In this document: positions 4,696 to 9,120 of the stretch, piece after piece
How positions within the stretch are numbered: position 1 is the stretch's first letter
Layout of the letters: each line of letters starts with the position of its first letter
IMG/VR virus record: IMGVR_UViG_2648501400_000007
From: a virus
Taxonomy: Duplodnaviria > Heunggongvirae > Uroviricota > Caudoviricetes
Length of the DNA: 9,421 bases
Reading direction: 5' to 3' (one strand)
The notes under the pieces: model-generated
Databases searched by the model: none
What the model was told of the DNA's origin: nothing
What the model saw: only the letters and a program-made list of their open reading frames with translations
Position numbers and translations under genes: made by a program

Positions 4696-5579
4696 CACAC
4701 ACTCCTCGTCAGTATTCTGGCGGCCATTGCACTTAATCCCGGAGACATGCGGTTGAATGCTGTGCCGGCGGCGTTAAGCTGCCCGGAAACGGTATCCAGA
4801 GCACCTGCAATATTTCTTTTGTCCACACCACTCAGCGCAGACTGTGCCTGCTGTACATACGTGGCTGCTTCGCTGGCTGTTCTGGCCAGACTGATGGCAT
4901 CGGGCATGGATTCAGAGAGTGCGTTAAACGCCGGAACACTTTTCCCCAGAGCCCCGGAGATATTACCCAGTCCGCTCATCAGCCCCGGCACACGGGTCAG
5001 TGCGACAACGGGGTTATCCTTCATTTTCTGTGTCACCCGAACGGCGCTGATAGTGGTCTGGAGTACAGACTGCGCCTGTTTCGCATAGTTGACGCCGTTG
5101 CGGATGAACTGCGCCACCCCGGAAGGTGAAGGAATGGCACCGGAGACCGCCCCGACACCCGGGAGCTTCGTGCGTATTGCCGGTGGTTGCAGAGGATTTT
5201 TCGGATCACCGGTGTATTCCCGGAGAGACACGGTGGCACTGACAGCCAGCACGTTACCGGTGCTGTCTGTCTGCTCGCTGGTTGCGGTCACATCGGTAAT
5301 CACGAACCAGCCACGATAGTCACCGTTGCCGAAGACCAGCGCCAGTGCCTGATGGGCTTTCATGGTTGTTCGCAGTCTCGCCAGCTCCACATCGGGTACA
5401 CAATAATGCTGATGGAAGACCAGACTGATCTGGATTTCGTCCAGCCTGTCGCCGACGAACTGCAGGCCAGGCTTACCCCCGATGCGGGCATGCTCCGCAT
5501 AATCGACGCCGAACGTGGCCTCGAAGCCGTCCCAGTAGGTAATCAGCTCAAACTCAATATCACCCAGTACGGCAAACAT
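4695..5579 (-). CDS. gpU-like tail protein (tail terminator / DNA-circulation-N-like N-terminal domain) with a long Ala/Ser/Gly-rich C-terminal extension
   Basis: 294-aa ORF, ATG at 5579..5577 overlapping the tape measure stop (TGATG). N-terminus MFAVLGDIEFELIT... resembles the gpU-family N-terminus as I recall it; position immediately after the tape measure gene. The family assignment is less certain than for neighbouring genes. Confidence 0.55.
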   Translation of the reverse strand: MFAVLGDIEFELITYWDGFEATFGVDYAEHARIGGKPGLQFVGDRLDEIQISLVFHQHYCVPDVELARLRTTMKAHQALALVFGNGDYRGWFVITDVTATSEQTDSTGNVLAVSATVSLREYTGDPKNPLQPPAIRTKLPGVGAVSGAIPSPSGVAQFIRNGVNYAKQAQSVLQTTISAVRVTQKMKDNPVVALTRVPGLMSGLGNISGALGKSVPAFNALSESMPDAISLARTASEAATYVQQAQSALSGVDKRNIAGALDTVSGQLNAAGTAFNRMSPGLSAMAARILTRSV

Positions 5580-8530
5580 CAGCGGTACTCCTTACGTTGT
5601 TTCTGAGCCAGCAGACGCTCCAGCATTTTTTCCAGCTCATGCAGACTCATATTCAGGGCACCAGTCAGTCCTGCAGGCGCTGTGGTTTCTCTGCCATTGA
5701 GGAAAAACTGAGGATTAAAGCTGACCTGGATACCACCAGACGTTCCACCGCCGGTTGCAACTGCACCACGGCCTGAATATCCGGCAGCCAGGATTTCAGG
5801 CGAGGGGATACGGGGAACATCCGGTGTCATCTCATTTGCCAGACGTTGCCCTGGTAAAATCGATGCCCGGGTGGAGAGCGGGATAGCGGGCATGGAAGAC
5901 AAACTATTGATTACGGCTCCGATCGCATTTTTAGCAGACGACATAAACCCGTTGATATCGGGCAACGGCATACTGAAGCGAACACCTGAAGTGTTATCCC
6001 GTATTTCTGGCCCCTGAATGCTCACGGGCATTCTGGGGAGCAGTTCACTGGCCATTCGCTGCCCGGCCAGAGCTGCAAGCGGAGTGGTCCGCTGCAGGCC
6101 AATGGCGGCCCCCTGCGCGATATTGTCACCAAAGCCCATAAACACGCGGCTCGGCGAATGAATACCCAGCTTTTCACTGAACCAGCCACTGATGCTGTCA
6201 CCCATTCCGGTTACACTGGATTTGAGCGACTCCCATTTGTTTTTGATACCGTTAATCAGACCGTCGACAAGATGGCCACCGAAGTCGGTGAACTTTGCCG
6301 GCAGATCAACACCAAGATATTTCAGCGCAGCTGCAAAGGCTTTATAGAGCAGACCTGCCGGCGACCAGTTAATCAGCAGCTTACCAGTTCCCGCGATACC
6401 GCCGTTAAAGGCTTCCTGAATGTCAGCCCAGCACTGTTTAAACCAGCTACTGATGCTGTCACCCATTCCGGTTACACTGGATTTGAGCGACCCCCATTTG
6501 TTTTTGATACCGTTAATCAGACCGTCGATAAGATGGCCACCGAAGTCGGTGAACTTTGCCGGCAGAGCAACGCCGAAATATTTCAGCGCAGCCGCAAAGG
6601 CTTTATAGAGCAGGCCTGCCGGCGACCAGTTAATCAGTAACTTACCAATTCCCACAATGCCGCCGTTAAAGGCTTCCTGAATGTCTGCCCAGCGCTGTTT
6701 AAACCAGCCACTGACTGCCCCCCAGTTGCGGTAGATAAGGTAAGCTGCTGCCGCGACAGCGGTGATAACGAGACCGATGGGATTCATCATCAGCGCACGT
6801 CCAATCCAGAGAACAGCACGTCCGGCGAGCATAATTCCGCGAACCAGCCCCCCGGAGAGCACGCCACTCAGTGTTCTGGCTCCTCTGGCGACGGCGCTAA
6901 ATCCGGTCACCAGCCAGCGGAGCTTACCGCCTTGCCCCAGTGCGAGCGACAGACGAAGCCAGTTGGCCCGAAGTAAAACAGCATTTTTCCAGACACTTAC
7001 AAAGGGGGAAATAAGGAGATTCAGCCCCAGTTTGAGACCAACAGTCGCTATCTTAATCGCAAGGAGCGCACTGATGAGCTTAAAAGCCCCACTGACAAAT
7101 TGCGGGTGAGTCGCTACCCAGTGTTTTGCCCCCTGAATGAGTGGAAGCAGTTCCTGAGTCAAAGAAATAAAAGATGGAGCTAATTGATCGCCCAGCGTAA
7201 TTGCCAGATCGCGACTGCTGACCATAAGTGTTTTAGTGGCTTCAAGGGGAGATTTCAGCCGCTGATCATAAGCACTGGCAAGCAAATCGTTATCCGCAGC
7301 CCTGAGAGCACCGGCACGGATCTCTCGATATCTGTCCATGTTGGCCAGCATCGGGCGGATAAATGCCATGACCTGCATATCCGCGAACATATCGCCCAGA
7401 CCAAAGTTTTTCGCCAGAGCCTGAAGTGCCTCATCTCTTGCCGTATCATTCTTTATTTTCATGGCTGATTTGAAGCCGGCCAGCGCTTCGGGGCTTTTGG
7501 CATTGAGGTAACGTTCTATAACACTCAACATCCCTTCAATCGGAGAGATCCCCGCAGCTTTATAACTCGCAATAGATCCCTGCAAATCAATACCCAGATC
7601 AGCAAACTGTTTCTGAGTATCGCGGGCAAAAATTTTGGTAAGAAAGTTTTTAAAATTATTGGCTGCTTCGTCGGTGGAACCTGCACCGATTTTTGCTATC
7701 TGGAGACTGGCCCCGATTTCAGCAACAACCTCTTTTCCACTGGCAATACCCGCCATCATTGGGGCCAGGGACTGCATCCACTTGACCTGATCCGGGATTT
7801 CAAATGACCCCTGGTCACCGGCATAAGCCATAATATTCTGAACGGCACCAAAATCTCTGGCCGCACCTTTCAGGGAGTTTTGCCAGACTGCGGCCACTTT
7901 TGCCCAGTCCTGAGCAGACGTGCGTGTTGCCGTTGCCGCGCGGGCAATATCCGGCATCAGAAAACCGATATCTGACACATTATCAATATTGTCGCTGATG
8001 AGTGAACCCACCGCCTCCTGCAGCTCATCCTGATACTGATTGTATTTAAGCGCCCAGCCTTTTATCTGTCCGGCAAGTCCATCCCGCGTTTTATTGTCAT
8101 ATTTTGCGGTGATCGACATATCAATCATTTTGTCCTGAAAAGACATGGACTGCTGAACGGCAGGGGAAACCGTATGATAAACAGTCTGTGCCATGCCATA
8201 CGCTTCAATCCCCTGACCATACAGCGCCATGCGGTTAGCTTTCAGCGCATCACTGGTAGCGGATGCCGCTGACAGACGGCGCTGCTGGCGCTCAATTTGC
8301 TCCATGGTGCGGCTTACCCGCAGCAGCTCGCTGTTGAGATGCTGCATCCGGGAAGAACCCAGTTGACCATAACGTTCTGTTGCACGGGTTAAAGCGTTCT
8401 GACGTTCCTGCAGGCGGCGTGAGGTATCGCTCAGGGAATCAAGCGCACGGCGGGTACCGCTCATTGCAGAACGGAATGTGCTGCCAATCATCCCGCCGAT
8501 AACAACGCCGACTGAAAACTGTCCCGACAT
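5579..8530 (-). CDS. Tail tape measure protein
   Basis: 983-aa ORF, ATG at 8530..8528 preceded by GGAGG. Has a coiled-coil-like N-terminal region, a hydrophobic/glycine-rich central region, and an internal tandem repeat; located directly downstream of the chaperone E/E' pair. Size and composition are typical of myovirus tape measure proteins. Confidence 0.9.
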   Translation of the reverse strand: MSGQFSVGVVIGGMIGSTFRSAMSGTRRALDSLSDTSRRLQERQNALTRATERYGQLGSSRMQHLNSELLRVSRTMEQIERQQRRLSAASATSDALKANRMALYGQGIEAYGMAQTVYHTVSPAVQQSMSFQDKMIDMSITAKYDNKTRDGLAGQIKGWALKYNQYQDELQEAVGSLISDNIDNVSDIGFLMPDIARAATATRTSAQDWAKVAAVWQNSLKGAARDFGAVQNIMAYAGDQGSFEIPDQVKWMQSLAPMMAGIASGKEVVAEIGASLQIAKIGAGSTDEAANNFKNFLTKIFARDTQKQFADLGIDLQGSIASYKAAGISPIEGMLSVIERYLNAKSPEALAGFKSAMKIKNDTARDEALQALAKNFGLGDMFADMQVMAFIRPMLANMDRYREIRAGALRAADNDLLASAYDQRLKSPLEATKTLMVSSRDLAITLGDQLAPSFISLTQELLPLIQGAKHWVATHPQFVSGAFKLISALLAIKIATVGLKLGLNLLISPFVSVWKNAVLLRANWLRLSLALGQGGKLRWLVTGFSAVARGARTLSGVLSGGLVRGIMLAGRAVLWIGRALMMNPIGLVITAVAAAAYLIYRNWGAVSGWFKQRWADIQEAFNGGIVGIGKLLINWSPAGLLYKAFAAALKYFGVALPAKFTDFGGHLIDGLINGIKNKWGSLKSSVTGMGDSISSWFKQCWADIQEAFNGGIAGTGKLLINWSPAGLLYKAFAAALKYLGVDLPAKFTDFGGHLVDGLINGIKNKWESLKSSVTGMGDSISGWFSEKLGIHSPSRVFMGFGDNIAQGAAIGLQRTTPLAALAGQRMASELLPRMPVSIQGPEIRDNTSGVRFSMPLPDINGFMSSAKNAIGAVINSLSSMPAIPLSTRASILPGQRLANEMTPDVPRIPSPEILAAGYSGRGAVATGGGTSGGIQVSFNPQFFLNGRETTAPAGLTGALNMSLHELEKMLERLLAQKQRKEYR
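6181..6717. repeat. 261-bp (87-codon) in-frame tandem duplication inside the tape measure gene: two full units (6181-6441, 6442-6702), roughly 90% identical by eye, plus the first ~15 nt of a third
   Basis: Direct sequence comparison: 'accagc(c/t)actgatgctgtcacccattccggttacactggatttgagcgac...' recurs with period 261. At protein level the block WFKQ(R/C)WADIQEAFNGGI...GMGDSIS is duplicated. Confidence 0.9.
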
Positions 8531-8605
8531 AGTGGTTAACCTCCGGGGAAGGTGAAAAGACGTGAGGGGATAACGCAGAACAGCCGCTACTGGCGGCTGT
8601 CTGTA

Positions 8606-9023
8606 CTATGATTTGTCGCCGTACTCGCTTTTTATTTGCTCTTCAGCCTGCTCCAGCCACATCTCCAGATCGTCAGTATCGAGGGCATCAATCTCCCCCG
8701 GCTGAAACCGGAACCATCTCGCCAGCAGCCCCTGCGCCTGCGTCAGCGCCCTGGTTGCTCTCACCCATCCCCGTGATGAGCTGAAATCGTTTCTGTAACT
8801 GCAGGTAATCAGCCAGATCCATATTGTCGAGATCTTCCGGGAGAAGACCAGTACTGCGGGCAATCAGCGGTTCGTCCCAGTCTGCCGGGTTTTTGCTGAT
8901 TTTGCGCACCTGCTTCAGGTCTTTTACCGTCAGGCGTTTCAGTTCAACCAGCTCAATTCTGGTGCCTGCAGCAGTGGTGAAGGGATAAGACAATTTAAAA
9001 GTATCGGATGGGGTCTGTGACAT
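8606..9023 (-). CDS. Predicted frameshift fusion product of the chaperone (E+E'-like); the E' frame is +1 (equivalently -2) relative to E and is open from 8863 to the stop at 8608..8606
   Basis: Second ORF (track 8606..8863, TTG-initiated, no Shine-Dalgarno) overlaps the last 176 nt of E in another frame and ends 75 nt before the tape measure start. My codon-by-codon comparison shows E' codons begin 1 nt 3' of E codons. Candidate shift site is the G-run in GCC-GGG-GGA (minus strand 8702..8694), three codons before the E stop. Confidence 0.5.
8688..9023 (-). CDS. Tail assembly chaperone (P2 gpE / lambda gpG analogue)
   Basis: 111-aa ORF, ATG at 9023..9021 preceded by AGGAG. Small acidic protein immediately upstream of the tape measure gene with an overlapping second frame, the conserved arrangement of tail chaperone pairs. 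Confidence 0.75.
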   Translation of the reverse strand: MSQTPSDTFKLSYPFTTAAGTRIELVELKRLTVKDLKQVRKISKNPADWDEPLIARSTGLLPEDLDNMDLADYLQLQKRFQLITGMGESNQGADAGAGAAGEMVPVSAGGD

Positions 9024-9091: not shown

Positions 9092-9113
9092 AAGAAGAAG
9101 GGGCCGGAGCCCC
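9092..9113 (-). terminator. Candidate intrinsic terminator on the minus strand (GGGGC-tccg-GCCCC followed by TTCTTCTT) between the upstream ORF remnant and the chaperone gene
   Basis: Seen in sequence: GC-rich 5-bp stem at 9100-9113 with a T-rich 3' tail at 9092-9099 (minus-strand sense), 7 nt after the remnant ORF stop codon. The stem is short and the tail is interrupted by C, so it is weak or partial. Confidence 0.3.
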
Positions 9114-9120
9114 TGTGATG

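Follow-up and report, generated by a model that had tools for sequence, protein, structure and literature searches.

The E/E' locus and its reading frames

The 9,421-nucleotide (nt) stretch of IMG/VR virus record IMGVR_UViG_2648501400_000007, analysed here at its full length and called the window, carries on its minus strand two overlapping open reading frames (ORFs) that are identified by sequence comparison as E and E', the tail assembly chaperone pair of a BcepMu-like prophage whose tail is of the P2 type. Their offset calls for recoding other than a -1 shift, probably a +1 ribosomal frameshift at the motif CGA UUU C inside gene E.

The ORF list and its translation give E as an ATG-initiated ORF at 9023..8688 that codes for 111 amino acids ending in ...GEMVPVSAGGD. 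The E' frame is open from 8863 to 8606, with its stop codon at 8608..8606, and its codons start 1 nt 3' of those of E; it translates to ...ARWFRFQPGEIDALDTDDLEMWLEQAEEQIKSEYGDKS and, in the same frame, ...LLARWFRFQPGEIDALDTDDLEMWLEQAEEQIKSEYGDKS, up to the stop. The -1 frame is closed by several stops across the E/E' overlap. A preliminary description of the locus had given these coordinates, the 1-nt offset and the closed -1 frame, all of which are borne out, and had correctly positioned a G-run, CC GGG GGA G, at 8701..8693, three codons ahead of the E stop.

The E protein matches Pfam family PF10109 Phage_TAC_7 (5.5e-21, residues 8-81), described as 'Phage tail assembly chaperone proteins, E, or 41 or 14', and its functional domain is predicted to span about residues 8-82. 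The pair is located between the genes of the tail tube and the tape measure. Escherichia phage PhiKM, which is assigned to Bcepmuvirus, has them in the order tube gene, ORF of 93 amino acids, E/E' and tape measure gene. The whole stretch is 99.7% identical to PhiKM and about 83% identical to Klebsiella phage KP12. It is present in 637 of 5426 complete E. coli genomes (~12%), in which RefSeq annotation by PGAP reports E alone, as 'phage tail assembly protein'; in one E. coli genome with the 5' part of E deleted, PGAP names the E' ORF 'GpE family phage tail protein'. The PF10109 match, the P2-type neighbours, the identity to PhiKM and the RefSeq/PGAP naming led to the assignment of the pair given above. 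Together with the conserved offset described below, the family match also supports the earlier proposal that the second part of this chaperone pair lies in the +1 frame, so that recoding other than -1 is needed.

Conservation of the +1 geometry

Close homologues were compared over 92 loci, made up of the window itself and 91 loci from phage records, one-per-species genomes and IMG/VR. In every interpretable locus E' occupies the +1 frame and reaches 27-34 codons past the E stop, with stops closing the -1 frame. Two loci, L027 and L091, are cut short, and in L010 and L086 the frames are fused by 1-nt deletions near the G-run. The same +1 offset is found in BcepMu, Ralstonia phage YO107_2, Pseudomonas phage Komp_PAO1_1 and a prophage of Salmonella Infantis, and in about 70 other distinct viral contigs. 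The homologous E' lies in the -1 frame in P2 and in a Pasteurella phage. Because the offset recurs in homologous loci, in distant genera and in hundreds of E. coli genomes, these comparisons exclude a chance ORF or a sequencing error as its cause. The reservation voiced earlier, that a 1-nt sequencing error might hide a -1 geometry, falls with them, as the +1 offset is found in all close loci and in the 637 complete E. coli genomes.

An exhaustive HMMER search of 1.84 billion representative proteins gave no in-frame E-E' fusion from distant relatives among the best 150 of 199 matches. There, E' occurs only as short separate ORFs, to which gene callers give 33-73 amino acids, and P0041, the sole match spanning E and E', resembles indel-fused assemblies. 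Since distant in-frame fusions were not found by this search, the requirement for recoding appears general in this clade.

In P0007, P0008, P0009, P0011, L262-L269, L010 and L086, a 1-nt deletion in or next to the G5 run joins E and E' in frame into a protein of 138 amino acids. The fused Logan proteins (P0007, P0008 and P0009; G5 to G4) were considered as evidence of slippage on the run and rejected. The tape measure genes on their contigs are also broken, which makes homopolymer read errors, and not phase variation, the likely origin of these forms.

A switch of selection between the frames

A codon alignment of 52 distinct E..E' sequences was used to follow selection in each frame, measured as the numbers of synonymous and nonsynonymous alternative codon types. 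Over the N-terminal domain of E the ratio is 106 : 122 in the E frame and 27 : 221 in the +1 frame. Over E codons 86-111 it becomes 6 : 60 in the E frame and 30 : 32 in the +1 frame, the latter resembling the +1 frame of the stretch that codes for E' only (20 : 35, against 6 : 49 in the E frame). At about E codons 82-86 nucleotide variability changes phase, falling on third positions of the E codons before this point and of the +1 codons after it. By these counts the +1 frame, and not E, is the target of selection between codon 86 and the E stop, residues 86-111 of E being a tail without protein-level constraint.

The +1-frame amino acids are conserved with synonymous variation from a Trp codon at 8767..8765 onward. 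This codon is TGG in 52/52 sequences, and the overlapping E codon varies between CTG, ATG, TTG and GTG. Upstream of the G-run the +1-frame stretch Q-G-L-L-A-R-W-F-R-F-Q-P is invariant in the 52 sequences and is written with several synonymous codons; one of its Arg codons, for example, is AGA in 28 sequences, AGG in 12, CGG in 11 and CGC in one.

The position of the E stop also differs between homologues. In 33 of the 52, a TAG at codon 105 (window 8711) ends E before the G-run is reached, and in four others E ends at codon 110. A codon-91 allele, CAG to TAG at 8751..8753 (loci L030 and L031; protein P0026), cuts E to 90 amino acids and is silent in E' (ACC to ACT). This E. coli allele is the commonest in the protein collection, P0026 being found on 914 contigs versus 487 for the 111-residue form P0005. 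The C-terminal tail of E appears dispensable, given that so widespread an allele truncates the protein. As E then stops before the G-run, the allele fits a shift at codon 80 and not at codon 109.

The part of the locus that codes for E' only (8606..8690) has a third-position entropy of about 4-5 per 10 codons versus 8-12 in the E domain. Synonymous variation is thus lower in E' than in the N-terminal domain of E even where a single frame is coded, which could reflect recent recombination or an additional constraint at the nucleotide level.

Probable position of the shift

The interval that can hold the shift runs from the last stop of the +1 frame to the first conserved residue of E'. In close homologues +1-frame stops occur at 8815 (9 sequences) and 8803 (1 sequence), and in Pseudomonas-type and metagenomic relatives, as well as in L271 and L273, such a stop lies just 3-4 codons before a conserved Phe codon at the end of the E domain. 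On the other side, the conserved E' Trp codon follows 3-6 codons after the UUC overlapping this Phe codon, and in many relatives E itself stops 10-14 codons after the UUU. These few codons share a single conserved element, a UUU with C (once U) directly after it. In the window it belongs to the motif CGA UUU C at 8789..8783, minus strand, which comprises E codons 79-80 and the first base of codon 81.

In the close homologues CGA, TTT and the following C are each present in 52/52 sequences. Among 78 distinct wider relatives TTT_C was found by automatic picking in 71, and after correction of mis-picks by hand it is present in essentially every sequence with the +1 geometry. The seven without it are P2, the Pasteurella phage, L230, L231 and L235, and the loci L095 and L259, in which the Phe codon was mis-picked; the true junction of L095 is CGA TTT CTG. 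The -1 shift of the Pasteurella phage lies further 3' than the junction Phe. L230, L231 and L235 read TTT ACG, lack a +1 ORF and may use instead a -1 shift at a candidate site, G GGA AAG. One relative of low GC content has TTT T (UUU_U) at the junction. The codon choice is maintained in GC-rich loci: where GC is at least 58%, TTT stands at the junction in 43/45, the two exceptions being mis-picks, although TTT makes up 30% of their other Phe codons (310/1028). Where an Arg precedes the junction Phe, it is always coded by CGA, high-GC relatives included.

Four distant proteins have two tandem E (PF10109) domains in one ORF (L270-L273; P0125, P0129, P0131 and P0137), and by sequence they are an internal control for CGA TTT Y. 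At the Phe site of the proximal domain their codons are TTC AAT, AAA TTT AAA or CGG TTT GAG, or Phe is absent. In all four the distal domain reads CGA TTT C or CGA TTT T, and it is this domain that the +1 E' ORF follows. Natural E-E' fusions had been sought with HMMER to guide the placing of the junction; the two-stretch matches of that search are E-E duplications and were rejected. A run of four G at 8732..8729 (GCA GGG GCT) was also rejected as a site of the shift; the last of its four bases is C, T or A in homologues, without effect on the E' protein.

The predicted E+E' protein

A +1 shift at CGA UUU C would yield a protein of 138 amino acids, made of E residues 1-80 and of 58 residues read in the +1 frame (SSSRGWVRATRALTQAQGLLARWFRFQPGEIDALDTDDLEMWLEQAEEQIKSEYGDKS; codons at 8606..8782, minus strand, with the stop at 8608..8606). 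Tryptic peptides predicted for this fusion are FSSSR, GWVR, ALTQAQGLLAR, WFR and FQPGEIDALDTDDLEMWLEQAEEQIK, and the stretch across its junction would read ...LQLQKRFSSSRGW.... The modelled protein matches PF10109 at residues 8-82 and has a putative GpE-like domain (P2 E', PF06528 Phage_P2_GpE) at residues 100-132, encoded at 8627..8725 of the minus strand in the +1 frame. The window E' itself scores 18.4 bits against PF06528, below the cut-off of 23 bits, and neither the modelled fusion nor E' alone has a match in NCBIfam.

In a set of 18 fusions of the +1 clade modelled at UUU_C, together with P2 E+E' and the Pasteurella -1 product (alignment A4), PF10109 is detected in 20/20 proteins and PF06528 in 13/20 at E <= 0.01, with a best E-value of 1.2e-21. 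The fusions from the 18 diverse loci are colinear with P2 E+E', as joined at its annotated -1 site, and with the Pasteurella product, the modelled junction falling within about 4 residues of that of P2. The equivalent fusion of BcepMu is colinear with the window fusion across the junction (1e-13).

Alternative explanations

Two explanations dispense with a shift. According to the more radical one there is no recoding, the open +1 frame being a relic, a chance ORF or the outcome of a 1-nt sequencing error, and the prophage being defective; many copies do lie in prophages of unknown activity and some assemblies have 1-nt indels that fuse the frames. This is already contradicted by the conservation data and hardly deserves credence. 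Distant genera share the offset, as do 637 complete E. coli genomes, purifying selection acts on the +1 frame, and the fused forms come from contigs with a fragmented tape measure gene, which points to homopolymer read errors. Somewhat less improbable, yet still very unlikely, is that E' is a small gene with its own initiation and that no E+E' protein is made. This would agree with the annotation of BcepMu gp42 as a separate coding sequence, plus a further -1 product gp43, and with the short E' ORFs often reported by gene callers (33-73 amino acids), one of which bears the PGAP name 'GpE family phage tail protein'. However, the +1 frame has no conserved start, the best column being ATG in 32/52 and ACG, ATT or ACA in the rest, and its conservation passes upstream of any candidate start, to the Trp found 3-6 codons after UUU_C. 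GenBank, moreover, records the homologous P2 E' as part of a -1 fusion, gpE+E'.

Two further explanations keep the shift and move it downstream. The preliminary description placed it on the G-run (GCC GGG GGA G, 8701..8693), by a +1 slip of tRNA-Gly or a Mu-like -2 shift, adding just the last 29 E' residues to a nearly full-length E; the junction expected from such a shift would be ...VPVSAGGEIDALD... (-2) or ...VPVSAGEIDALD... (+1). The run permits perfect re-pairing in the window, is present in 42/52 distinct homologues and resembles the verified Mu -2 site CGG GGG CGA, just ahead of the gp41 stop. The comparative data nonetheless contradict this placement already, and we hold it to be highly improbable. 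E terminates before the run, at the codon-105 TAG in 33/52 sequences and also in the codon-91 TAG allele of 914 contigs. The run itself varies to CCT GGG, CCA GGG, CCT GTG and CCG AGT, the E' frame reading P-G-E, P-V-E or P-S-E, silent or conservative changes; in some homologues it is thus replaced by CCT GTG or CCG AGT, and in distant relatives it is absent altogether. Protein-level selection on the +1 frame extends for about 23 codons upstream of it, and the Pfam GpE match, which starts from residue 100 of the modelled fusion, sets in some 8 residues ahead of the G-run junction. A product of E plus 29 residues is not supported. A conserved Mu-type run allowing -2 re-pairing before the 0-frame stop was looked for among the 52 homologues and the distant relatives; the window has one but it is not conserved. 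Homologue comparison, put forward earlier as a check on both features, has therefore confirmed the frame offset (92 loci and distant relatives) and not the G-run, whose bases in the window (8693..8701, minus strand) are ordinary E' codons, CCG GGG GAG, P-G-E. The least improbable of these alternatives, though unlikely, is that the enteric clade shifts five codons later than CGA UUU C, at GGG N in E codon 85 (8771..8768), directly before the conserved E' Trp codon, tRNA-Gly moving from GGG to GGN. GGG is present at codon 85 in 51/52 sequences, E-frame constraint lasts to this codon and +1-frame constraint begins at the next. The base that follows GGG varies (C, A, T or G), however, so that the shifted codon would usually be a wobble mismatch for tRNA-Gly(CCC); one member of the clade (L177) has GGC instead; and the BcepMu, Pseudomonas, Ralstonia and metagenomic relatives keep the same geometry with no GGG between UUU_C and the conserved Trp.

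Proposed mechanism of the shift

We favour a +1 shift at CGA UUU C (8789..8783) giving the 138-residue E+E' protein as the probable explanation on the comparative evidence. In this model most ribosomes would translate E to its stop, for a product of 111 amino acids, and a minority would shift 32 codons ahead of the E stop, at the conserved Phe with which the E domain closes. We infer that the P-site tRNA-Phe, with anticodon GAA, most likely moves from UUU (8786..8784) to UUC (8785..8783), one base 3'. This tRNA pairs with UUU by a G.U wobble and with UUC by G:C, so that the move would be favourable. In a sub-variant leading to the same protein, peptidyl-tRNA-Arg on the rare CGA codon, held by an inosine-adenosine (I.A) wobble, would favour out-of-frame entry of Phe-tRNA on UUC. 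The invariance of the rare CGA suggests that this wobble contributes to the shift, which it could do through a weak E-site duplex or, by analogy with yeast Ty3, through a P-site defect. Re-pairing by -2 at UUU_C was considered and rejected, as the upstream bases GA, CC and GU cannot pair with tRNA-Phe; it is feasible at the junction only in the rare T7C variants L197 and L246.

Several observations weigh against this site and this mechanism. In E codons 82-85, 3' of the motif, constraint is still in the E frame (4 : 4 versus 1 : 7), and for the enteric clade alone a shift at the codon-85 GGG fits equally well; shift sites could differ between clades. The homologous sequences share a phylogeny and the counts above are not independent. 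As to stimulators, RNAalifold on the 52 homologues revealed no conserved 3' RNA structure (consensus -1.9 versus a mean of -23 kcal/mol for single sequences), and no Shine-Dalgarno-like element is conserved upstream among the relatives. Nor is there a slow codon in the A site, which is CAG in the window and CGC, CGG, CAA or CTG elsewhere, neither rare nor stop. The lack of a recognised stimulator is one of the limits on our confidence in a shift at UUU_C. A hairpin at 8783..8730, obtained by folding the single sequence (z = -2.5), was rejected as a stimulator since it belongs to the window only and is not conserved in the 52 homologues.

It is possible, although we advance it only tentatively, that CGA UUU Y stands for a previously undescribed class of bacterial +1 recoding signal, present in a large proteobacterial clade of BcepMu-like and P2-type myophages and prophages, among them the prophage of about 12% of complete E. 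coli genomes, and having CGA as its stimulator. Such a signal, with CGA in the E or P site, would need neither a stop or hungry codon nor a Shine-Dalgarno-like element, nor any structure on its 3' side.

By analogy with lambda G/GT and P2 E/E+E', the N-terminal domain common to both products would bind the tape measure protein, and the E' domain of the longer one would recruit tail tube subunits. A low level of shifting, of a few percent if lambda and P2 are a guide, would suit such a chaperone pair.

Comparison with other recoded phage genes

For tail chaperone genes, shifts of each kind, -1, -2 and +1, have been recorded (Atkins et al. 2016, PMC5009743). Nearly all characterised cases are -1, the exceptions being Mu, with a verified -2 shift, and a few predicted +1 cases (PMC5009743).

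P2 provides a close parallel. Its pair likewise has PF10109 in E and, in an alternative frame, PF06528 GpE, which the window E' matches below the cut-off; it lies between the tail tube (FII) and tape measure (T) genes, and the downstream U, D, V, W, J, I module is found in the window too. The junction is at a Phe codon, within about 4 residues of that modelled here, and the fusion has 142 amino acids in P2 versus 138. The P2 shift, however, is -1 at GGT TTT TTG (T6G), whereas the window has CGA TTT CAG with E' in the +1 frame and no T6G or T7G heptamer. The 0-frame E runs 31 codons past the shift here versus about 7 in P2, and identity is very low, BLASTP aligning only the E' motif (E = 0.03).

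Mu gp41, named in the PF10109 description, is also extended in the +1 frame, as gp41-42, and this chaperone pair too lies before the tape measure gene. The -2 shift of Mu, mentioned in the preliminary description, is indeed annotated as verified in GenBank AF083977, at GAA CGG GGG CGA. That site is a G-run with perfect -2 re-pairing a few codons before the 0-frame stop; the comparable run of the window lacks conservation and in most homologues comes after the E stop, and -2 is impossible at UUU_C. Lambda gpG and gpGT are likewise chaperones that share their N-terminus, are made in a set ratio (~1:30) and are encoded before the tape measure gene (PMC5009743), but they depend on the -1 heptamer G GGA AAG, and no sequence similarity to the window pair was detected.

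The re-pairing of a P-site tRNA one base 3' has precedents in prfB (CUU_UGA_C) and in Listeria phage PSA (CCC_UGA) (PMC5009743; PMC10274946). Those sites have a stop or slow codon in the A site, with an upstream Shine-Dalgarno-like stimulator as well in prfB, none of which is conserved at UUU_C.

BcepMu (AY539836) is a true homologue with the same +1 geometry and the junction TCC TTT CGC, but its record presents the genes otherwise. Gp41 is given as a separate conserved protein, and gp42, the +1 ORF, as a 'lambda G' gene in its own right that a -1 shift joins to gp43 in a lambda G/T-like pair (L094, 4603..5364). The homology suggests instead that gp41 corresponds to E and gp42 to E', with a +1 shift at TCC TTT CGC between them. 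If so, gp43 may not be a real product.

Neighbouring features

The presumed client of the chaperones is the tail tape measure protein of 983 amino acids, encoded on the minus strand at 5579..8530 and recognised by Pfam matches that include PF10145. Homologues of P2-type gpU, gpD, gpV, gpW, gpJ and gpI (PF06995, PF05954, PF04717, PF04965, PF04865 and PF09684) are encoded 3' of it. A stem-loop at 8581..8599 of the minus strand, CAGCCGC-CAGTA-GCGGCTG followed by TTCTGCGTT, lies between the E' stop (8606) and the tape measure start (8530). It is kept in nearly all homologues, in some of which the arms co-vary (e.g. AGCAGCCGG...GGCTGCT), and it may serve between the chaperone and tape measure genes as a partial terminator or to stabilise the mRNA; its T-run is too short for a simple terminator scan to call it. 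A terminator-like hairpin of putative function, AGGGGCTCCGGCCCCT followed by TCTTCTTAAT, is found at 9099..9114 (minus strand), between E and the 93-residue ORF after the tube gene.

Significance

A geometry other than -1 is not new in itself. What appears undescribed in the resources searched is a +1 shift that joins homologues of P2 E and E' at CGA UUU C in a BcepMu-like clade. No description of a +1 E/E' shift was found in the BcepMu literature, the coverage of which was incomplete, so that this absence is no proof, and no annotation of a joined E+E' product exists in the phage or RefSeq records examined.

If the model is right, an essential protein, E+E', is missing from every public annotation examined, PGAP reporting E only and the BcepMu GenBank record gp41, gp42 and gp43. 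Annotation pipelines and programs for predicting frameshifts would overlook it where they look for a site close to the 0-frame stop. Some 26 residues at the C-terminal end of E would be a by-product of the overlapping E' frame and not a functional tail, and the candidate signal CGA UUU C would be short enough for mutagenesis in E. coli. Frameshifting in tail assembly chaperone genes is among the most conserved recoding events of phages; here a whole clade would have kept homologous P2-type E and E' domains with E' moved to the +1 frame.

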